Shown: positions 7,919 through 44,933, numbered from the stretch's first letter. The stretch: DNA of 64,000 nt from an uncultured Gemmatimonadaceae bacterium (GCA_964537775.1 CAZICQ010000015.1:5935-69934), one strand, 5' to 3'. Notes: a model not told the origin generated them from the sequence alone. Translations and numbers: made by a program.

Positions 7919-9477
7919 ACGCCGCGAGCTCGATCGGTCACCCGAACACGGTCGCGATGGGGTTCTTCGTTCTGTTCATCGCCATCACGTTAGGCATCAC
8001 GTACTGGGCGGCGCGACGGACGAGGACCACGGAGCACTTCTATGCCGCCGGCCGCACGATCACCGCCGGCCAGAACGGCTTCGCCCTCGCCGGCGATTAC
8101 ATGAGCGCGGCGTCGTTTCTCGGCATTGCCGGCCTCGTGTCGACGACCGGATTCGACGGCTTGATCTACTCCACGGGCTGGCTGGTGGGCTGGCCGGTTG
8201 TGCTCTTTCTCATCGCCGAGCCGCTCCGGAATCTTGGACGCTACACCTTCGCCGATGTCGTGGCGTTGCGGCTACGCCAGCGCCCCGTGCGCATCGCAGC
8301 GGCGATCGGCACGCTCGCCACAGTGATTCTGTACCTCATCGCGCAGATGGTCGGCGCGGGCGGGTTGATACGCCTGATGTTCGGCCTCAGCTACGAGACG
8401 GCCATCGTTCTCGTCGGCGTCGCCATGATCGCGTACGTGTTGTTCGGCGGCATGCTGGCCACCACGTGGGTGCAGATCGTGAAGGCCGCGCTCCTTCTGA
8501 CCGGCGCCTGCCTGCTCGCCCTGCTCGTGCTGGCGCGTTTTGGAATGAATCCGGCGGCGCTGTTCGCCGCCGCGGCGGCAAAGTATGGCAATGGCGTGCT
8601 CGCGCCGGGGAAGCTGGTGTCGAACCCGCTCGACGCGATCTCGCTCGGCATGGCGCTGATGTTCGGCACCGCCGGCCTCCCGCACATTTTGATGCGCTTC
8701 TATACGGTTCCGGACGCGAAGGCCGCGCGCACGAGCGTGTTCTACGCCACGGGGCTGATTGGCTTCTTTTATCTCCTCACCTTCGTTCTTGGCTTCGGCG
8801 CGATGGTGCTGGTTGGCCCCGACGCGATCAAGGCCGTCGACAAGGGAGGAAACATGGCGGCGCCGCTGCTCGCGGAGCTGCTCGGGGGCACGCCCTTCCT
8901 CGGGTTCATCGCCGCGGTGGCCTTCGCTACGATCCTGGCGGTGGTCGCCGGACTCACGCTGTCCGGCGCGGCCGCGCTCTCTCACGATCTGTGGGTGAAC
9001 GCTGTGCGCGGTGGTGAGGCCAGCTCGACGGAACAGTTCCGCGTGGCGCGGATGGCGACGGTCTGTCTCGGCGTCATCGCGGTCTTCCTCGGCATCACCT
9101 TCAAGAGCCAAAACGTGGCGTACATGGTGGGACTCGCGTTTGCGATCGCCGCCAGCGCGAATTTTCCGGCGCTCCTGCTGTCGATGTTCTGGCGGCGCCT
9201 GACGACGGCGGGCGCGGTGTCGAGCATGCTCTTTGGCACGGTCGCGACGCTGGTGCTGATCTATCTCTCACCCACCCTGCAGATCGACGTGTTCAAGCAC
9301 ACGACCGCCACCTTCCCGCTGAAGAATCCGGCGCTCGTCACGATTCCACTGTCGTTCATCGTCTGCATCGTCGTGTCGCTGCTCGGCTCGAGGCCCGCCG
9401 GCGAGGGCGATGCCGAGCGACATCGGGAGCACGAGCGACAGATGCACCTCGGCGCGCCCGTCGTGGACGTCGGCTAG
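7915..9477 (+). CDS. actP: Cation/acetate symporter ActP (sodium:solute symporter family)
   Basis: 520 aa polytopic protein. The N-terminus FFVLFIAITLGITYWAARRTRTTEHFYAAGR..GQNGFALAGDYMSAASFLG is typical of ActP/SSF proteins. Confidence 0.85.
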   Translation: MNAASSIGHPNTVAMGFFVLFIAITLGITYWAARRTRTTEHFYAAGRTITAGQNGFALAGDYMSAASFLGIAGLVSTTGFDGLIYSTGWLVGWPVVLFLIAEPLRNLGRYTFADVVALRLRQRPVRIAAAIGTLATVILYLIAQMVGAGGLIRLMFGLSYETAIVLVGVAMIAYVLFGGMLATTWVQIVKAALLLTGACLLALLVLARFGMNPAALFAAAAAKYGNGVLAPGKLVSNPLDAISLGMALMFGTAGLPHILMRFYTVPDAKAARTSVFYATGLIGFFYLLTFVLGFGAMVLVGPDAIKAVDKGGNMAAPLLAELLGGTPFLGFIAAVAFATILAVVAGLTLSGAAALSHDLWVNAVRGGEASSTEQFRVARMATVCLGVIAVFLGITFKSQNVAYMVGLAFAIAASANFPALLLSMFWRRLTTAGAVSSMLFGTVATLVLIYLSPTLQIDVFKHTTATFPLKNPALVTIPLSFIVCIVVSLLGSRPAGEGDAERHREHERQMHLGAPVVDVG

Positions 9478-35890: not shown

Positions 35891-36253
35891 ATGCGCCACG
35901 TTCTCCGTTTGCACGGCGTCGTGGTCGGCTGGTCCGATCTCGAGCAGGCGGAGCCGGAGCTCGGTCGTGCGCGTGGACGCTTCCGACCGGCGTTCGGCTA
36001 CGAGCTGATTCAACCGGTGTTTCGATTGTACGCCGAGGCGGTCGAGCGCGGCCGCTCCGTGCCCCACGACGGCGAGAAGCTCGAACGCTATCATCGGAGC
36101 CGCGACGCGCTGCAATTGGAGCTGCAGGATGACGCCGGACACCGCATCGCGACGAACGCCATCCACATCGCCGACTACTCCGCCGGGTCGCGGGAAGACA
36201 TCGAGCTCGACGTCCTGATCGCGGACGAGGGGTACTGGAAACGGCGTCAGTGA
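35891..36253 (+). CDS. Hypothetical protein (120 aa)
   Basis: ATG at 35891 (or GTG at 35888) in frame with track ORF 35807..36253. GC3-rich frame. The 3' end overlaps the convergent dnaE2 stop by 7 nt. Confidence 0.5.
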   Translation: MRHVLRLHGVVVGWSDLEQAEPELGRARGRFRPAFGYELIQPVFRLYAEAVERGRSVPHDGEKLERYHRSRDALQLELQDDAGHRIATNAIHIADYSAGSREDIELDVLIADEGYWKRRQ

Positions 36254-39200
36254 AAGTCGTGCCGGCCGGCGAATTCCGCTCCGACGGCCGCGTTCAGCTC
36301 ACGGAACTCCTCGCCGCGAATATTGAAGACCCCCTGCTCGACCTGAAGCACGCCGCGGACGAGGAGAAGGGGAGAGCGGGCGATCAGCAGTGCTTGCCGC
36401 TCGAAGCGCTTCGGGGTGACGATCACGTTCACCGTGCCCGTCTCGTCCTCGAGCGTGAGAAACACGAAGCCCTTCGCTGTTCCGGGGCGCTGCCGGCAGA
36501 TGACGAGTCCCGCGACGGCAACGCGTTCGCCGTCCCTGCCGCGATCGAGGATCTCCTTCGCCCTGCGTATGCCATTTGGCGCGAGCACCTCACGCAGGTG
36601 CGACAGCGGATGGCCGTTGAGCGAGATACCGGTCATTCGGTAGTCCGCTTCGGTGAGCTCGTGCGGCGTCATGGCCGGAAGGGGAGGGCTCGCTGCCACG
36701 GGCTGGTCGCCCGGCTCCGCCGGTGCTCGCCCGCCGCCGCCAGTGCTCGCCCGGCGCCGGCGCCCGGGCGCCAGCGGTCCAGCGTCTCCGCGCGCGCGCT
36801 CCAGCACGTCCCACAGCGCGGCTCGCCGCTTGCGCAGCGCCGGCTCGTTAGGCGCGAAGCAGTCGAACGCGCCGGCCTCGGCGAGATGGCGCAGCGAGCG
36901 GCGGTCGAAGGATGTCCGGGCGACGAAGTCGTCGATGGAGGTGAAGGTGCCACCGCGACTCCACGCCGCGTCGAGGATCTCCTGCGCCTTGGGACCGAGT
37001 CCATGCACGGAGCGAAAGCCGAGGCGTACCGCCGGAGCGGTCGCCGTGCCGCCGCTACTCGTACCGGGCGCTTCGTCCCGCTCGAGCGTCGCGTCCCATC
37101 GCGATCGCGAGGCGTCCACCGGCCGCACGACGACGCCGTGTCGTTTGGCATCCTCCACCAGCGTCCCCGGAGCGTAGAAGCCCATCGGCTGGGCATTGAG
37201 AATCGCCGCCGTGAACTCCGGGGCGTAGTAATGCTTGAGGTACGCCGACGCGTACACGAGCAGCGCAAAGCTCGCGGCGTGCGACTCGGGAAAGCCGTAG
37301 TCGGCGAAGGCGTTGATCTGGTTGTAGATGCTCATCGCCGTCTCGTCGGGGATGCCGTTCGCGCGCATGCCGTCGATCATGCGCTGGCAGACTGCCGCCA
37401 TACGCTCGTGGCTTCGCTTGTGCCCCATCGCGCGCCGGAGCGCGTCGGCCTCGCTGGGCGAGAATCCCGCGCAGGCGATCGCGACCTGCATCCCCTGCTC
37501 CTGAAACAGCGGCACGCCTAACGTGCGGGAGAGAATCGGCTCGAGCGACGGATGCGGATACGTCACCGCCTCCTCGTTGGCGCGCCGCCGCAGGTAGGGG
37601 TGCACGAGGTCGCCCTGGATCGGCCCCGGACGGATGATCGCGACCTCCACCACGATGTCGTAGAACGTGCGCGGCTTGAGACGGGGCAGGGTGCTCATCT
37701 GGGCGCGGCTCTCCACCTGGAAGATGCCGATCGTATCGGCGCGACAGAGATCGTCGAACACCGACTGATCCTCCATGTCCAGCTGTCCGAGATCGATCGT
37801 CACGCCGCGCATCTGCCGCACGTATTTCAGGCAGTCCTGGATGAGCGTGAGCATGCCGAGGCCGAGCAGGTCGATCTTCACGAGCTTCATCGGATCGAGG
37901 TCGTCCTTCTCCCACTGGATCACCGTGCGATCCTTCATCGATGCCGGTTCGATCGGCACGATCGTCGACAGCGGCTCCGCCGTGAGGACGAATCCGCCGA
38001 CGTGAATCGACCGGTGCCGCGGGACCTGATGCAATCCGTTCACGATTCTGGCGAGCGCTCGCACGCGCTTGTCCGCCGGATCCAGTCCGGCCAGCTCCAC
38101 CGGCGATCGGGACGAGCCGGTCGGACGCGTGGCCGTCGTAGGATTGCGCCGCTCGTTATGCGTCATCCTGGCGTGCGGATCCATGTAGCGGGGGCGCCCC
38201 CCCGCCCCCCCCTCCGCCCCCGCGCCCCTCTTCGCCGCCTCCTTCACCTTGCGCGCTTCCGTGGTCGCCTCCGTCCCGGCAACCATCGTTTGGCCGAAGG
38301 CGCGGGCAATCGCGGCTTCGTGTGACTCGCCTCCGGCTTCGCCTTCGTGGTCCGGCGGGAGCCCACGGAGCGCGTCCGCCGTTGCGCGCGCCGAGTATCG
38401 GTCCGCCACCGTGCAGAGCTTCTCCGCCTGTTCCACCGAGAAGCCGAGCACACGCGCCGCGTCGCGCACGGCCGAGCGGCCGCGGTACGTGATCTGCTCG
38501 CAGACCATCGCCGCATGGTCGCGCCCGTACTTCTCGTACACGTACTGAATGACCTTCTCGCGGTCACGGTGCGCGAAATCGATGTCGATGTCCGGCGCCT
38601 CTCGGCGTTCCTCGCTGAGAAAGCGCTCGAACAGCAGTCCGAGCCTGATCGGGTCGACGGAGGTGATCCCGAGGCAGTAGCACACCGCCGAATTCGCCGC
38701 CGAACCGCGTCCCTGGCACAACACCCCTTCGCGCCGTGCGAAGCGCACGATGTCCCACACGATGAGGAAGTAGCCGGCCAGGCCGAGCTTCGCGATGAGC
38801 TCCAGCTCGTGCGCGATCTGCTCGTCATGCCGTGCCGTACGATGCCCTGCTCCCCCGCTCTCACCCCAGCGTTCCTGAGCGCCCTGCTCGACCAGGCGCG
38901 CCAGATATTCGTCGGCGGTCACGCCGTGCGGCAATGGGAACGCCGGAAGGCTCGGCTCCAGATCGGTCATCCGAAACGCGCAGCGCTCGGCGATCTGCAA
39001 CGTTGCCTGGATGCCTTCCGGTGCATGCCGCCAGCGGCGTCGCATCTGCGCGGCGCTCTTGAGATACCATTCCCCGTTCGGCCGCAGGCGCGTTCCCATC
39101 TCGTCGAGCGTTCGCTCGTGCCGCAGACACGACAACACGTCCTGGATCATGCGATCCCGCGCTCGCGCGTAGTGGACGTCATTCGTGACCACCCAGGGCA

Positions 39201-39813
39201 CGCCGAGCGCGTGTGCCACGTCGATGAGGCCGCGCGATATCTCACGCTCCTCGGCCAGGCCGTGATCCCAGCACTCGATGGCCAGCCGCCCGTCGAAGAT
39301 GTCGCGCAGCTCCGCCGCGGCGTCGCACGCCAGCTCCGTCGCTCTCCCCTCCGCGATGAGCGACGGCACCCAGCCGCGCGCGCATGCGGTGAGCGCGAAC
39401 AGCCCTGCCGCATGGTGCGCCACCGTATCGAGTGGCACCGACGGCTGGCCGCGATCGTTCTGCATCCGCCCGGCCGTGATCAGCGAACAGAGATTGCCGT
39501 AGCCCTCGCGATTCTCGGCGAGCAGCACGAGATGATGCACGGAAGCGGATGGAGAGCTGCGTTCGGCGGACGCGTGGCCGTCGACCGCGATCGTCAGCTC
39601 CGCTCCGATGATCGCAGCGAGTCCGTGCTCATCCGCCGCCTGTGCGAAGCGCACGGCGCCGCCGAGGTCATCGTGATCGGTGAGCGCGAGAGCGGTGTGG
39701 CCCAGCTCCACCGCTCGTTGCACGAGCGTCTCCGGCAGCGCGGCGCCGTCGAGCAGTGAGAATGCCGAATGGCAATGCAGCTCGACGTATCCCGAGGCGT
39801 TCAGTCGTACCAT
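36247..39813 (-). CDS. dnaE2: Error-prone DNA polymerase III alpha-subunit paralog DnaE2 (ImuC)
   Basis: ATG at 39813-39811 (MVRLNASGYVELHCHSAFSLLDGA, the PHP domain). Pol III alpha blocks run throughout and there is a C-terminal OB-fold region. Located directly downstream of imuA/imuB-like genes. Confidence 0.93.
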   Translation of the reverse strand: MVRLNASGYVELHCHSAFSLLDGAALPETLVQRAVELGHTALALTDHDDLGGAVRFAQAADEHGLAAIIGAELTIAVDGHASAERSSPSASVHHLVLLAENREGYGNLCSLITAGRMQNDRGQPSVPLDTVAHHAAGLFALTACARGWVPSLIAEGRATELACDAAAELRDIFDGRLAIECWDHGLAEEREISRGLIDVAHALGVPWVVTNDVHYARARDRMIQDVLSCLRHERTLDEMGTRLRPNGEWYLKSAAQMRRRWRHAPEGIQATLQIAERCAFRMTDLEPSLPAFPLPHGVTADEYLARLVEQGAQERWGESGGAGHRTARHDEQIAHELELIAKLGLAGYFLIVWDIVRFARREGVLCQGRGSAANSAVCYCLGITSVDPIRLGLLFERFLSEERREAPDIDIDFAHRDREKVIQYVYEKYGRDHAAMVCEQITYRGRSAVRDAARVLGFSVEQAEKLCTVADRYSARATADALRGLPPDHEGEAGGESHEAAIARAFGQTMVAGTEATTEARKVKEAAKRGAGAEGGAGGRPRYMDPHARMTHNERRNPTTATRPTGSSRSPVELAGLDPADKRVRALARIVNGLHQVPRHRSIHVGGFVLTAEPLSTIVPIEPASMKDRTVIQWEKDDLDPMKLVKIDLLGLGMLTLIQDCLKYVRQMRGVTIDLGQLDMEDQSVFDDLCRADTIGIFQVESRAQMSTLPRLKPRTFYDIVVEVAIIRPGPIQGDLVHPYLRRRANEEAVTYPHPSLEPILSRTLGVPLFQEQGMQVAIACAGFSPSEADALRRAMGHKRSHERMAAVCQRMIDGMRANGIPDETAMSIYNQINAFADYGFPESHAASFALLVYASAYLKHYYAPEFTAAILNAQPMGFYAPGTLVEDAKRHGVVVRPVDASRSRWDATLERDEAPGTSSGGTATAPAVRLGFRSVHGLGPKAQEILDAAWSRGGTFTSIDDFVARTSFDRRSLRHLAEAGAFDCFAPNEPALRKRRAALWDVLERARGDAGPLAPGRRRRASTGGGGRAPAEPGDQPVAASPPLPAMTPHELTEADYRMTGISLNGHPLSHLREVLAPNGIRRAKEILDRGRDGERVAVAGLVICRQRPGTAKGFVFLTLEDETGTVNVIVTPKRFERQALLIARSPLLLVRGVLQVEQGVFNIRGEEFRELNAAVGAEFAGRHDFH

Positions 39814-41606
39814 CCCTGCAGCATCCACTGCGCTTCCGCGCGGTCGAGGTACAGCACGAAGTCGCCAAACGAGCTTTCGCATCGCCAGTAATCGCGCTGG
39901 TAGCCGTCGCTCCACCAGTCGCCCGAGAGCCGTTCTGGTCCTACCGCTCGAGCGATCGCGATGCGGCGATTCTGCCACGTCATTGCCTGTGGAACGTCGC
40001 CGTCGCAGTCGACGAACACCGACGCCGGCTGTTCCAGCAGGCGTAGCGTCGGCTCGATCTCGACCGCCGCGCTCTGCCGTCTGGCAGCCACCGTCGTCCG
40101 GTCACCCGCTGCCGATGGTACGTCGCTATCCTGCCATGCACCGGCGCGCTCGGGCACGAACGCATCGCGCGCCACCGGCTTGACCACGACATTCGGTCCC
40201 AGCTCGGCGCGCAACCGCGCCAGCGCGGCATCCGCGGCGGCTGGATCGCGCCACGCGCTGTCGAGCAGATTCCCCTGTTCTCCGGAGATCGGTGTCGTCG
40301 CCACGATGCTGACGGTGACGCCGCTGACCGGCGCGCTCAGCGTCCAGCTGTCGAGCAACGTTCGGCAATGCTCGAGGAGCGGGGACACGCGCGCGAGCGG
40401 ATGTGCCGGCCGTACCTCGCGCGTGATCGTGTGTGGTCGCGGCGCTGTTTCACTCCTGTTTGCCGACGCTGGTGGAGGCCAGGGCAGGGCGCTGCGTGCA
40501 TCGTCGAGTGTGAGCGTGATCGCCACCGCCGCGGCGGCGCGTCCGTCGCTCACGAGCTGCATCACCAGACGATCGAGTGCCGCGCGCACGAGAAAGAGCA
40601 CCGGCTCCATCGTCGCCGACGATGCCGGCAGCTCGAGCTCCACCGAGAGCGGTGGCGCCACGCGCGCGAGCACTGGGCGTCGCCGGTCCTCGCCGCGTGC
40701 CAGGCGCCACGCCGCGAGCCCGATGTCTCCCCAGCGCCGCTCCACGTCCTCGGCCGCCAACGCCGCCAGCGCGCCAACGCTGCGCAGGCCAAGAGCGCCG
40801 AGCGCTTCGCGCAGCTCCTCCTCCATCGGCACGAGCACCAGTGGTGCGGGCGCGAGGTACTCGGCATCACGGCCCGGAGGCACGATACAAATCAGCGACC
40901 GTTCATCGCCGCCGCGCTGAAAGGATGTCCCCGCCCAGGTCGCCGCGCGCGCGGCCACACACGAATCCGCGATAGCAACGCGGGCCTGTGGATGCCAGCG
41001 CGCGGCGATGCGGCGCAACGTGTACGCGAGCGCGCGTTCGCCGGCGCGCTGGCTATTGCGTCCGTCGCCATCGCGGCCAAATCCCGACGCGCCCACCCAC
41101 CACATCCCTGGCGCACCGGACACGGGGCTCACCTGGGGACTACCGCCGACGAGGAGTGCCGTCAACTCCGTGATCGCGCCGGCGATCGCGACATCGTCCC
41201 ACGGCAGCTCCTCGAGATCGGCGCACATGGCTCGCGCTTCGGCGATCGTCATACCGGCGCGAATGCCGCATCGTGCCGCCGCCGCCGACACCGTCCGCAG
41301 GCGCCGCCGGCTGCCATCGTCGGTTAGAACGATCGGCCGGTCATCCCAGAGCGCGGGCGCGCCCGTGTCCCCGCGGCGCTCGTCCGTAATCCGGCTCGGC
41401 GCACCGTCGCTTTCGGGGCAGCGACGCGGGGAGGGGTTCGTCAGGCGCGCGGTCTGCGAGGATGGGTGTCCCTCCGTCTCCCGCGTGAACGGTAGCAGTA
41501 GCTGTACGTCGCTCGCGCCCAGATCGCCCCTTCTCGCGCTGCGCCACACCGCGGCGATCGGGAATCTGGGGATGCGCACACAAGCGACGCGCCACTGCGA
41601 TTGCAC
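39801..41606 (-). CDS. imuB: ImuB (Y-family polymerase-like protein of the mutagenesis cassette)
   Basis: GTG start, then VACVRIPRFPIAAVW N-terminus. UmuC/DinB-like fold blocks (RCGIRAGMTIAEARAMCADL, ADSCVAARAAT). Its stop overlaps the dnaE2 start by 13 nt. Confidence 0.85.
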   Translation of the reverse strand: MQSQWRVACVRIPRFPIAAVWRSARRGDLGASDVQLLLPFTRETEGHPSSQTARLTNPSPRRCPESDGAPSRITDERRGDTGAPALWDDRPIVLTDDGSRRRLRTVSAAAARCGIRAGMTIAEARAMCADLEELPWDDVAIAGAITELTALLVGGSPQVSPVSGAPGMWWVGASGFGRDGDGRNSQRAGERALAYTLRRIAARWHPQARVAIADSCVAARAATWAGTSFQRGGDERSLICIVPPGRDAEYLAPAPLVLVPMEEELREALGALGLRSVGALAALAAEDVERRWGDIGLAAWRLARGEDRRRPVLARVAPPLSVELELPASSATMEPVLFLVRAALDRLVMQLVSDGRAAAAVAITLTLDDARSALPWPPPASANRSETAPRPHTITREVRPAHPLARVSPLLEHCRTLLDSWTLSAPVSGVTVSIVATTPISGEQGNLLDSAWRDPAAADAALARLRAELGPNVVVKPVARDAFVPERAGAWQDSDVPSAAGDRTTVAARRQSAAVEIEPTLRLLEQPASVFVDCDGDVPQAMTWQNRRIAIARAVGPERLSGDWWSDGYQRDYWRCESSFGDFVLYLDRAEAQWMLQGWYD

Positions 41607-42252
41607 AACTCACCTCCACGGTTTTGCGGGGACCACCTTTTTCGACGACGACGACGAACGAACGGGGAGCGGCGCACGATCGGCGCCTGCCTCCTCCCGG
41701 CTCGCCGCTCCCGCGCGCCACGCGCAATCGGACCGCCGTACCTAACGAGTTACGCATCGCGCTCCCCGCTCCTCCGGCGCTGGTCTCCTCGTCCCGCGTC
41801 ACCACGAATGCGGCGTTCGATTCGCGCGCCAGACGCGTGAGACGCACTGCGATCGCCTTGGGCAGCGGCGGCCCCGAGTCCAGCACCACGAGCGCGAACG
41901 CGCCGCAGCGCAGGAGCACGTCGGCACACCACGCCGCCCGCGCTGGATCGCGCGGCCGGATCACCCAGAGGCCTTCGTGCGCGCCGAGGTGCGCCCAGTC
42001 GCGCGGCGCCAGCGTGCGCGATGCGTCGATGTACGCCACCCATCCCGCTCCGGCGATCGCCTCTTCCGCCATGCGGCGCAGCAGCGTCGTCCGCCCGCTC
42101 CCGCGCGCACCCGTTCCCACGACCTCCGTCAATCGGCCGCGCGGCAAACCGCCACCAAGCGCAACGTCGAGGGCGTCGATTCCCGTCGGCAGCCCGGGCA
42201 CCGCTGGCGCTGCCGGCGGCAGCAGCGACAGGAGCGACTGCGGCGCGGTCAT
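41341..42252 (-). CDS. imuA: ImuA-like (RecA/SulA-fold) protein
   Basis: ATG at 42252-42250 (MTAPQSLL). Contains LPTGIDALDVALGGGLPRGRLTEVVGTGARGSGRTTLL and the typical WVAYIDASRTLAPRDW block. The frame runs on for 266 nt into imuB. Confidence 0.8.
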   Translation of the reverse strand: MTAPQSLLSLLPPAAPAVPGLPTGIDALDVALGGGLPRGRLTEVVGTGARGSGRTTLLRRMAEEAIAGAGWVAYIDASRTLAPRDWAHLGAHEGLWVIRPRDPARAAWCADVLLRCGAFALVVLDSGPPLPKAIAVRLTRLARESNAAFVVTRDEETSAGGAGSAMRNSLGTAVRLRVARGSGEPGGGRRRSCAAPRSFVVVVEKGGPRKTVEVSCAIAVARRLCAHPQIPDRRGVAQREKGRSGRERRTATATVHAGDGGTPILADRAPDEPLPASLPRKRRCAEPDYGRAPRGHGRARALG

Positions 42253-43352
42253 GGCGAAACATCCGCTTCCTCGAACAACGCGAGCTGCCGGTCGTCCAGC
42301 GCTCCTGCTTCTGCTGCCCACCGGGCGCGGACCGCGTATTCCTCACGCTGATCGTGGCCGAACGGAATGCCATACTTCGCGCACAGCCGCCTGAAATGGC
42401 GCTGGAGTCCTTCTCGATAGCGTGCACCCACCTGATGATCGTGCGCGTACGATGCGCGATATCGCGCCGCGAGCTCCGGAAACTCGTGTGCGATGAATGG
42501 CAGATACCGCTGCTTCGCCGACGCACGCAGCCGCAGCGCGCACGCGCTCAGCGAGCTCGCCCCCGCCGCCGCCACGGTCCGCACCAGCGTATCGAGCTGC
42601 GCCGGCTCGTCCGTGATTCCTGGCAGCACCGGCATCGTGTTGATTCCCACCGTGATCCCCGCCGCTCGCAATCTGCCTAACGCGCGAACGCGCGAGTCCG
42701 GCGTGGGCGCGCGCGGCTCCAGGCGGCGCGCCAGCTCGCGATCGAGCGTGATCAGCGACAGATGGATCGACAAGCTCGAGTGCCGCTCGATGCGCGTGAG
42801 CAGATCGATGTCGCGCGTGATCAGCGGACTCTTCGTGATGATCACGATCGTGAGTCCGGCATGATCGGCGAGCACCTCGAGCACGCCACGCGTCAGCTGA
42901 AAACGGCGCTCCGCCGGCTGGTATGGATCTGTCGCCGTGCCGATGACGATCGCTTCGCCGTGCAGCAGCGCGAGGTGGCGATCCGACCCGTGGCGCAGCG
43001 TCTCCCGCAACACGGCGGCGGCGTTCTCCTTCACGAAAATCCGCCGCTCGAACGCCAGCCAGGGCGGCATGGTCTCGATCGCCGTCTTCAACGGCTCATG
43101 ATCGGGATTCGCCGCTACCGACCGCTCCAGAACGTACCGGTGCGCATAGCGCGCGTAGCAGTACGTGCACCCGAACGCGCAGCCGACGTAGGGATTGATG
43201 GACCAGAACCCCATCCCCGTAGTCTCCGGCCCGTTCAAAATCTGCCGCGCTCGCGTTCCGTAGTAACTGATATCTTTCTGCTCGCCCACCACGGGCAGCC
43301 GGCGCCGGGTGGCGGTCGCGTCGTCGAACAATGTGGTCTGCTGCAGCTGCAT
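42249..43352 (-). CDS. Radical SAM protein of the PA0069 / SplB-like (COG1533 'DNA repair photolyase') family
   Basis: 367 aa. CxxxCxxC cluster motif in INPYVGCAFGCTYCYARY. The N-terminal region QILNGPETTGMGFWSINPY is typical of this family as I recall it. Its TGA overlaps the imuA ATG (ATGA at 42249-42252). Confidence 0.85.
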   Translation of the reverse strand: MQLQQTTLFDDATATRRRLPVVGEQKDISYYGTRARQILNGPETTGMGFWSINPYVGCAFGCTYCYARYAHRYVLERSVAANPDHEPLKTAIETMPPWLAFERRIFVKENAAAVLRETLRHGSDRHLALLHGEAIVIGTATDPYQPAERRFQLTRGVLEVLADHAGLTIVIITKSPLITRDIDLLTRIERHSSLSIHLSLITLDRELARRLEPRAPTPDSRVRALGRLRAAGITVGINTMPVLPGITDEPAQLDTLVRTVAAAGASSLSACALRLRASAKQRYLPFIAHEFPELAARYRASYAHDHQVGARYREGLQRHFRRLCAKYGIPFGHDQREEYAVRARWAAEAGALDDRQLALFEEADVSP

Positions 43353-43400
43353 CGTCTGGACGTCCTCGAGCCGACTGAACCGCTCATTCTGGCGGGGGGA

Positions 43401-43431
43401 TCGTATATACCGAATATAAACCGAAACAGCA
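43401..43431 (-). promoter_or_regulatory. AT-rich box with an 11-nt-spaced direct repeat CCGAA(N6)CCGAA and TATATA/TATATT hexamers; candidate promoter/operator of the radical-SAM-imuAB-dnaE2 operon
   Basis: The sequence tcgtatataccgaatataaaccgaaacagca is roughly one-third G+C in a GC-rich genome. It lies 50-80 nt upstream of the ATG at 43352. No other comparably AT-rich stretch was noticed nearby. Confidence 0.4.
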
Positions 43432-43439
43432 AGACGCCT

Positions 43440-44933
43440 GCCTTTGTCGCACTCACCTGTGCGGTCATCGCCTTCGCAGCGGCCCTCACCGTCAGCGATC
43501 CGCCAGGACCAGGACTCGATCCAGACAGTGCTTTCTATCTCGGTGGTGCCGAGTCACTCGTGGCGGGACATGGATACCGCGCTCCCATCGCCCTCTGGAG
43601 CTCACCCGACAGCAGCGCACCCATAACGCATTTTCCGCCAGGGCTTTCCGCGGCAATCGCCATCCCGACTCGCTTCGGCTTGCCGCTCCTCCAGAGTGCG
43701 CGTCTCGTCAACGCCGTCTCTGCTTTCATCACTCTCGGTGCGGCCACCTACCTCGTCGCCATCGCCGTGGGCCCTGCGGCCGCCATCGTGCTCGGCGTCA
43801 TCCTCCTCGTGACCCCGGCTCTGGTCGCCGACCATCTCGACGTCCTGAGCGAACCGCTCTTTCTCGCCTGCATCATGCTCGCGCTCCTTGCGATGGTACG
43901 TGCTCCGGAGCGTCCTCTGGCCGCGGGCATGGCCGCCGCGCTCGCGACCCTCGTGCGCTACGCGGGCATCTCCGTCGCGGCGGCGGCCGTCGTCTGGTCC
44001 GCCCTCCAGGGTGGCACGAGCCGAGAACGTCTCCGGCGCGCGGCGGTCGCCGCTATCCCCGCGCTCCTGCTGCAGAGCGCCTGGGTCGTCCATGCACGAG
44101 CCACCGCCGGCTCGCAACCCATTCGCACATTCGCCGTCTACCTGGGCAGAATGGACCGAACGCTCGTCCAGGCATGGGCGACGCTCACGCACTGGCTCGT
44201 TCCGCTGCCGGAGGACACGTTTAGCGTGCACCGCGTGCCTGCCGGCGCAATCGCCCTGGCCGCCATCGTCCTGCTCGCCACGCTCGTGACGTTAGGCAGC
44301 CGCGCGCTGCGTGTCGCCGATGAGCGCGCGGCCGTCGCGCGCCGGCTGCTTGGCGCAACGGGCATTCTCGTCACCGCGTACATCGCGGTGATCCTCGCGT
44401 CACGACTCGTCGCCGATCCGAACATCCCCTTCGACGACCGCATTCTCTCCCCGCTCCTGCTCCTGTTGGAGGTCGCCTGTGTAACGGCCGCAGCACAGTG
44501 GTGGCCGCGTGGGGCGATGCCGGCGCGCATTGCACTTCTCGCCGCCGGCGCGATCTGGGCCGTGGGGTCGTTCGCGCTGACGCGCGCTGCCGTGAACTGG
44601 GCGCTCACCTACGGCAACGATTTCGCTGGCGAGCAATGGCGCCGCTCCGAGCTTCTCGATTGGACGCGCACCCACGCGCGTGATGTGCCGATCTACTCCA
44701 ACTGGCCCTCGGCGATCACGTTATACCTCGATCGTCCCGCGCGGGACCTTCCCTTCGCCGACACGCGCGTGAACGGTCGCGCCTTCGCCGATACCGTGCG
44801 CGCGCGACGCGCTGTCATCGTCGATTTCGACGTGAAGAATCCGCAGTTCGCCGGTGGGGACTCGCTAGCCCGGGTGCCGGGCCTCGTTACGATCGCGAAG
44901 CTCGCCGACGGCCAGGTGTTGGCCGCGCGCTGA
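43440..44933 (+). CDS. Polytopic membrane protein, ArnT/PMT-like (GT-C fold) glycosyltransferase suspected; start codon unresolved
   Basis: Frame of track ORF 42762..44933. The first TM helix (AFVALTCAVIAFAAALTV) is followed by a DPDSAFYLGGAES loop and more than 10 further TM helices. No ATG/GTG/TTG lies in frame between 43353 and 43559. Confidence 0.6.
   Translation, partial: AFVALTCAVIAFAAALTVSDPPGPGLDPDSAFYLGGAESLVAGHGYRAPIALWSSPDSSAPITHFPPGLSAAIAIPTRFGLPLLQSARLVNAVSAFITLGAATYLVAIAVGPAAAIVLGVILLVTPALVADHLDVLSEPLFLACIMLALLAMVRAPERPLAAGMAAALATLVRYAGISVAAAAVVWSALQGGTSRERLRRAAVAAIPALLLQSAWVVHARATAGSQPIRTFAVYLGRMDRTLVQAWATLTHWLVPLPEDTFSVHRVPAGAIALAAIVLLATLVTLGSRALRVADERAAVARRLLGATGILVTAYIAVILASRLVADPNIPFDDRILSPLLLLLEVACVTAAAQWWPRGAMPARIALLAAGAIWAVGSFALTRAAVNWALTYGNDFAGEQWRRSELLDWTRTHARDVPIYSNWPSAITLYLDRPARDLPFADTRVNGRAFADTVRARRAVIVDFDVKNPQFAGGDSLARVPGLVTIAKLADGQVLAAR

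Follow-up and report, generated by a model that had tools for sequence, protein, structure and literature searches.

A predicted LexA-controlled operon joins a COG1533-type radical SAM gene to imuA-imuB-dnaE2 in a soil Gemmatimonadaceae bacterium

The DNA examined in this study is a stretch of 64,000 nucleotides (nt), hereafter the window, from an uncultured soil Gemmatimonadaceae bacterium (GCA_964537775.1, CAZICQ010000015.1), and all coordinates refer to it unless another contig is named. Its minus strand carries, between positions 36247 and 43352, four co-directional open reading frames (ORFs), each of which overlaps the next, namely a radical S-adenosylmethionine (SAM) gene, imuA, imuB and dnaE2. 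The radical SAM gene (42249..43352) starts with the ATG at 43352, stops with the TGA at 42251-42249 and encodes 367 amino acids (aa). Its stop codon and the start codon of imuA (ATG, 42252-42250) are merged in an ATGA junction (42249..42252). The imuA gene (41341..42252) encodes a RecA-fold, ImuA-like protein of 303 aa, and its last 266 nt are shared, in a different frame, with imuB. The imuB gene (39801..41606, 601 aa) starts with a GTG at 41606, six bases past a GGAGG, and its stop codon lies at 39803-39801. Finally, dnaE2 (36247..39813, 1188 aa) starts with the ATG at 39813 and shares 13 nt with the end of imuB. An earlier note, prepared from the sequence before the present analysis, had given the same overall span, ATGA junction and imuA/imuB and imuB/dnaE2 overlaps, and all of them were reproduced here.

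The segment from the promoter to imuA (2151 bp) was found to be 100% identical across four independent run-level assemblies. The fusion is thus real, and an assembly artefact as the source of the ATGA junction was ruled out. A consensus scan for promoter-like sites inside the four-gene unit found none. Two terminator-like hairpins were detected, one within imuB and one in the leader, compared to 2.7 expected by chance; the single imuB hairpin is within chance expectation, and an internal terminator splitting the unit was rejected. It had been proposed that the four genes form one translationally coupled unit behind a single upstream box, a proposal to which an internal promoter or terminator before imuA would have been contrary. 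The overlaps and the scan, which separates no genes, support it. The window contains no lexA, in agreement with the earlier note; the two lexA genes of the same genome are located on other contigs, and none of lexA, recA and ruvB sits at the operon locus.

Upstream of the radical SAM gene, a promoter can be read from the sequence at 43404..43432 (minus strand), composed of two hexamers set 17 nt apart, a -35-like TTGCTG (43432-43427) and a -10-like TATATA (43409-43404). As a consensus match it is too weak for the sigma-70 scan to pick up. In the operon sense the upstream box reads cTTGCTGtTTCGGTTTATATTCGGTATATAcga. The spacer is occupied by the direct repeat TTCGG-N6-TTCGG, present here as TTCGGTTTATATTCGG (43410..43425, minus strand), which is the predicted LexA operator, and the TTG...TATnnT frame around the box is also present in relatives. 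The AT-rich box that had been noted upstream of the operon is a regulatory site, consisting of a promoter and a predicted operator. The opposite (plus) strand carries a divergent gene for a PMT_2-like membrane protein, in which no start codon of the ATG, GTG or TTG type precedes the first predicted helix (43353-43560). Gene callers start it at the GTG at 43560, leaving a 207-nt intergenic region that contains the operator.

The assignment of the repeat to LexA is based on its distribution. The exact repeat was found just 5' of the radical SAM ortholog in nearly all of approximately 100 Gemmatimonadota loci. In the genome of the bacterium itself, where the identities of recA, ruvB and lexA were confirmed, two exact copies precede the start codon of lexA1, at distances of 69 and 97 nt, and a copy with one mismatch is found 96 nt upstream of recA. 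Exact matches in this genome number 12, versus approximately 8 expected from base composition, among them those at the operon, lexA1 (two), ruvB (one) and a helix-turn-helix (HTH) gene (one). All 30 lexA1 orthologs of the same family or order have at least one exact box within 120 nt before the start, and 29 of the 30 have two or three. Since a LexA regulon is typically recognized by a box that recA and ruvB share with an autoregulated lexA, we read TTCGG-N6-TTCGG as the predicted LexA box of Gemmatimonadales. The genome also encodes a second LexA paralogue (C3:58532-59128; 149 bits on TIGR00498). No TTCGG-N6-TTCGG was found upstream of this paralogue, and the box was therefore assigned to LexA1. 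Given the location of the box in the promoter spacer, the operon is predicted to be SOS-induced. The HTH gene mentioned above encodes an XRE-like protein of 177 aa (C1:197706-198275), with the exact box TTCGGACTTTCTTCGG 36 nt upstream, and is a possible further member of the SOS regulon. Our literature search found no paper describing the LexA motif of Gemmatimonadota and no paper with a TTCGG-N6-TTCGG direct-repeat operator.

The organization of the locus was compared among Gemmatimonadota using 10-kb contexts from 40 relatives, 80 further species genomes and two metagenome contigs, which yielded 75 unique informative loci. Mutasome genes were present downstream of the radical SAM gene, on the same strand and within 10 kb, in 44 of the 75 loci (59%), so the adjacency is not peculiar to the window, and the absence from relatives that the earlier note had named as contrary evidence was not observed. 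In 13 loci the radical SAM gene is fused to imuA, with a gap of -4 to 206 nt and no recognisable box in it, and in six the two stand in near tandem, the gap containing a box that belongs to imuA. Unrelated genes covering 1.3-6.4 kb are inserted in a further eight loci, always with a box before imuA. A conserved extra gene between radical SAM and imuA in these far tandem loci was considered and rejected, as the inserts are heterogeneous. In 17 loci, belonging to sister families, the radical SAM gene is followed by a cassette of imuB-like and dnaE2-like genes without imuA, mostly with its own box. The remaining 31 loci carry the radical SAM gene alone. In the cultured Gemmatirosa kalamazoonensis KBS708, too, the gene is solitary and has a box. 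In sister Gemmatimonadales families (L053-L067 and L109-L149; e.g., L062, ~8990-9160), a small ORF with six cysteines (...CPDCG...SGC..C..CGWGRCG*) is inserted upstream of the radical SAM gene, on the near side of the one or more LexA boxes. These loci often have two inverted boxes upstream, and the ORF is absent from the family of the window.

The window is the sole locus among approximately 80 with a negative gap between the radical SAM gene and imuA. In its closest relative, L150, whose enzyme is 80% identical, the two genes are separated by 163 nt and the box TTCGGTATTTGTTCGG is located 45 nt before imuA. In the enzyme tree the window is sister to L150, both fall within a well-supported clade whose other members retain the internal box, and well-supported branches indicate that this box was lost independently at least five times. 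The spacer of L150 and the position in the tree thus point to the fusion in the window as a recent compaction of two neighbouring SOS units. Judging from these sequences, the ATGA junction is the result of a recent deletion of a ~160-nt spacer that contained imuA's predicted LexA box. By the same comparison, the adjacency of radical SAM gene and mutasome is old and widespread in the order. The tight four-gene arrangement described in the earlier note is real in the window, but it is no conserved design. Most relatives keep two units, each with a box.

Concerning the enzyme itself, its cluster motif is C58-x3-C62-x2-C65, and the three cysteines are invariant in 30 sequences. It scores above the cut-off of the Pfam Radical_SAM model (PF04055; 57.4 bits, cut-off 29.5), which places it in the superfamily. 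Its best NCBIfam matches, the Rv2578c family (NF038135; 220.3 bits in two stretches, cut-off 430) and the PA0069 family (NF033668; 205.4 bits, cut-off 360), both fall under their cut-offs. By sequence, the enzyme belongs to the COG1533 / PA0069-Rv2578c superfamily and to neither curated family; on account of these scores it was assigned to a third branch, found in Gemmatimonadota and Acidobacteriota. That members of this family have no established substrate, as stated in the earlier note, was borne out in the literature searched. An AlphaFold2 model for which 30 orthologs were used is of high confidence (mean predicted local distance difference test score, pLDDT, 85; predicted template modelling score, pTM, 0.82) and has disordered ends. 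Its best full-length match in the PDB is spore photoproduct lyase (SPL; 4FHC, 4K9R), with a template modelling (TM) score of 0.52-0.55 and 14% identity, while NifB, LipA and others follow with partial matches only. The TM score for SPL is just moderately higher than for other radical SAM folds. A PDB search with the family profile gave no meaningful match and retrieved no SPL chain even at E<=1, and an NCBIfam scan of the enzyme returned no match to the sporelyase model. The predicted fold is SPL-like, yet by sequence and model the enzyme is not SplB.

Both ends of the enzyme carry a short motif of the clamp-binding type, QTTLF at residues 5-9 (43326..43340, minus strand) and QLALF at residues 356-360 (42273..42287, minus strand), each within a low-pLDDT tail of the model; with their flanking residues they read QQTTLFDD and RQLALFEE. 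The consensus for binding to the beta clamp is QL[SD]LF or QLxLxL, usually at a protein terminus, and the tails of the enzyme fit it in sequence and position, which makes them putative clamp-binding sites. Using the strict pattern Q[LMFWIV]x[LM]x0-1[FLWIV], scored in the last 16 residues, the C-terminal motif was found in 63 of 112 orthologs, compared to a rate of 1.9% when tails were shuffled and 0.09% for windows in the protein interior. An N-terminal leader with Q-x-x-[LM]-[FLW] was present in 44 of 94 orthologs (3.9% of shuffled leaders). Similar C-termini occur beyond the phylum, namely QMKLF or QLALF in the Acidobacteriota orthologs, QLSLF, QGSLF, QGELF, QLSLL or QLDLF in the sampled proteobacterial PA0069 proteins, and QESLF in the actinobacterial Rv2578c protein. 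No paper tying a clamp motif to a radical SAM enzyme was found in our literature search.

The three downstream products are consistent with a mutasome. ImuA is recognized by Pfam RecA (52.9 bits, cut-off 27) and stays under the cut-off of the NCBIfam model ImuA_translesion (57.7 bits, cut-off 150); where it is encoded, and its identity of 37-70% to the syntenic products of relatives, fit ImuA. The N-terminus of ImuB, VACVRIPRFPIAAV, is typical of ImuB, and its VACVRIPRFP segment, read against the DinB consensus, lacks the first catalytic Asp. ImuB scores 32.8 bits on Pfam IMS (cut-off 23.2) and far under the cut-off of all DinB equivalog models. It contains the clamp motif EQGNLL (40263-40280) and an ImuB-C domain ending in QGWYD, and among 20 relatives of ImuB EQGD/NLL and the C-terminal W are conserved. 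This end matches the "conserved C-terminal tryptophan" of ImuB-C described in PMC3765255. DnaE2 exceeds the cut-off of NF004225, "error-prone DNA polymerase" (1260.8 bits, cut-off 939), and comprises PHP, pol3_alpha, finger, HHH_6 and OB domains. Between two blocks matched by the family model it carries a low-complexity insert of ~100 residues rich in Gly, Ala and Arg (residues ~523-622; ~38100-38400), and the length of this region varies in relatives, as seen from split tblastn matches.

With respect to the overlap of imuA and imuB (266 nt, 41341-41606), the imuA frame ends at a TGA embedded in the conserved W-D-D codons of imuB (ctgGGATGAcc). In L150 the overlap is 146 nt, with the same "...ALG*" ending, and the difference in length is due to a low-complexity insert in ImuB. 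The tail of imuA looks like alternate-frame read-on with no folded domain.

SOS control has already been reported for this radical SAM family. Rv2578c has a LexA peak in chromatin immunoprecipitation sequencing and is induced in a RecA-dependent manner (PMC3381160), PA0069 is one of 15 SOS genes of P. aeruginosa, a LexA-bound radical SAM gene has been published in Streptomyces, and splB/COG1533 is SOS-regulated in Alpha- and Betaproteobacteria and in Bacteroidetes (PMC3323433, PMC8565304). The window enzyme shares with PA0069, Rv2578c and splB the Cx3Cx2C core, an upstream LexA box, in its case a predicted one, and the C-terminal QxxLF tail. It differs from these genes, which stand alone in their organisms, in being physically joined to mutasome genes. 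Both modules are present in Mycolicibacterium smegmatis mc2-155, with an Rv2578c ortholog, and in Pseudomonas putida KT2440, with a PA0069 ortholog. The LexA-regulated imuA-imuB-dnaE2 cassette is also established (Abella 2004 and Erill 2006, both cited by PMC3919608), together with a mutasome model (PMC6511836). The cassette of the window agrees with it in the three genes, their order and overlapping junctions, in an inactive Y-family ImuB with ImuB-C and a clamp motif, and in the predicted LexA operator upstream. In contrast to the classical cassette, the window has a radical SAM gene fused in front, no lexA, an operator of the TTCGG-N6-TTCGG type and an ImuA under the curated cut-off. No paper with a radical SAM gene in front of imuA-imuB-dnaE2 was found in our literature search.

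The nearest published parallels are of two kinds. Aravind, Anand and Iyer (2013; PMC3765255) described operons pairing standalone ImuB-C with SplB-like radical SAM genes. As in the window, a radical SAM "photolyase-like" gene is linked to an ImuB-C module; however, in those operons ImuB-C is a separate small protein without a polymerase, whereas the window has the full ImuA-ImuB-DnaE2. The radical SAM class of those operons may partly be the COG4277/UDG-linked type. The second parallel concerns modules of inactive PolY and DnaE2 without ImuA (Timinskas and Venclovas 2019; PMC6511836), a paper in which neither Gemmatimonadota nor a radical SAM neighbour is mentioned. Such modules were found here in sister Gemmatimonadales families, downstream of the orthologous radical SAM gene (imuB-like 25-32% and dnaE2-like 25-40% identity), while the window has the canonical version with ImuA.

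We consider it highly probable that the four genes form a LexA-repressed SOS operon which arose by fusion of two neighbouring SOS transcription units. LexA1 would occupy the promoter spacer and thus repress transcription. Upon DNA damage, activated RecA would lead to self-cleavage of LexA and the promoter would open. One mRNA would then serve all four proteins, with ribosomes that end the radical SAM gene restarting on imuA and then on the following genes. The SPL-fold enzyme, with its flexible tails carrying clamp-type motifs, probably binds the sliding clamp where forks stall or gaps occur, and would there act on a DNA lesion by means of SAM-derived radicals. ImuB, via its own clamp motif, would recruit ImuA and DnaE2 to that clamp so that the lesion can be bypassed mutagenically. 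The enzyme and the mutasome may have one lesion as their common target, or they may simply be induced together. The earlier note had suggested a damage-processing step that feeds ImuABC; as a hypothesis, it is made somewhat more plausible by the synteny and the shared clamp-type motifs.

Several observations weigh against this picture. Each module can occur without the other, as imuABC with its own box is present in genomes without the radical SAM gene (G009, G014), and the radical SAM gene is present in genomes with no ImuB match at E<=1e-15 (e.g., G016, G025). In G002, G010 and G015, weak ImuB matches of ~32% identity are located elsewhere in the genome, and we take these to be of the DinB type. 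In the eight far tandem loci, unrelated genes separate the two modules. Moreover, LexA binding to TTCGG-N6-TTCGG is deduced from comparative genomics, co-transcription and damage induction of the operon are predictions, and the putative clamp-binding motifs are short peptides. Finally, none of 13 loci from other phyla (six Acidobacteriota, five Pseudomonadota, one Actinomycetota and one Bacteroidota) has imuA, imuB or dnaE2 beside the gene.

These 13 loci comprise six Acidobacteriota orthologs (42-44% identity), loci of the PA0069 or Rv2578c family on Tsukamurella, Legionella, Sinorhizobium, Ralstonia, Sphingomonas and Paracoccus replicons, and a Runella locus of the more distant "mobile pair" type. 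Among plasmids and chromids of other phyla there were 46 matching records; eight of these were inspected, and in none does imuA, imuB or dnaE2 neighbour the gene. Although the sample is small, it argues against a general linkage across phyla. Two of the loci have polymerase genes as neighbours. On plasmid 8 of Legionella adelaidensis (L154) a gene for a PolX polymerase/exonuclease is transcribed divergently from the PA0069-family gene, and on a Sphingomonas plasmid (L191) the family member converges with a gene that is annotated as dnaE. Whether by chance or not, the family may thus have further polymerase neighbours.

As to why the two modules are found together, the likeliest of the rival explanations is a purely regulatory one, in which SOS genes unrelated to each other came to be neighbours by chance, the deletion of the spacer was neutral and the terminal motifs have nothing to do with the mutasome. 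Since SOS control of the radical SAM family has already been published, co-regulation alone explains much of the linkage. The modules are separable, have their own boxes and tolerate inserts between them, the adjacency is absent from the loci sampled outside the phylum, and in Mycobacterium and Pseudomonas the family belongs to the SOS genes in its own right. On the other hand, a same-strand linkage of 59% within 10 kb across the order is far above that of two random regulon members, and the locus attracts no other SOS gene, be it lexA, recA or ruvB. On balance, we regard this explanation as a serious contender that stops somewhat short of an even chance.

The opposite explanation is functional integration, namely that the enzyme converts or marks a blocking lesion on the clamp for bypass by ImuB-DnaE2 and that selection keeps the genes together. 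It is favoured by the same-strand order, which is kept in three families and with two mutasome types (imuABC and the imuB-like/dnaE2-like cassette without ImuA), by the repeated and independent fusion of the units, by the clamp-type motifs on both the enzyme and ImuB, and by the ImuB-C and SplB-like operons of PMC3765255. However, each module is found without the other in complete genomes, most tandems have separate operators and some have unrelated inserts, and no adjacency was seen in the sampled loci of other phyla, although the family is under SOS control there and retains its clamp tail. This explanation appears to us unlikely.

Gemmatimonadota is not a phylum known to sporulate. SPL is a radical SAM DNA-repair enzyme and the closest solved full-length fold, from which the window enzyme differs in its clamp-type tails and predicted SOS control. 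That the enzyme is a true SPL, which without any part in translesion synthesis directly reverses 5-thyminyl-5,6-dihydrothymine when soil cells are dried out and exposed to UV, has in its favour the fold match, the NCBI label "SPL family radical SAM protein" on some orthologs and the role proposed by the Erill group (PMC3323433), but it is rather improbable given the 14% identity, a family profile that retrieves no SPL chain, the lack of a sporelyase match and the only moderate lead in TM score.

Returning to the SOS operon formed by fusion of two units, a broader proposal can be attached to it. The SOS-controlled COG1533 radical SAM proteins, i.e., PA0069, Rv2578c and the Gemmatimonadota branch, may be clamp-tethered enzymes acting on replication-blocking lesions, and in Gemmatimonadales they would share the clamp with ImuB-DnaE2, hence the linkage and the repeated fusion. 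We put this forward tentatively and with considerable doubt.

Mutations induced by DNA damage, among them those that make mycobacteria and pseudomonads resistant to drugs, are driven by the imuABC mutasome. The parts described here, an SOS mutagenesis cassette and an SOS radical SAM gene, are known; what is new is that the two are fused, with the radical SAM gene first. As an event, this tight fusion is minor and recent, and the value of the locus lies in the synteny, the candidate LexA box and the clamp-type tails. Radical SAM genes of the PA0069/Rv2578c type are conserved members of the SOS regulon with no known substrate, for which the present analysis provides three handles, namely the phylum-wide synteny with the mutasome, a candidate Gemmatimonadota LexA box, and clamp-type peptides that extend to proteobacterial, actinobacterial and acidobacterial families. 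Taken together, they turn an "unknown SOS gene" into a testable hypothesis, according to which the enzyme would dock on the clamp and then perform lesion chemistry at stalled forks.

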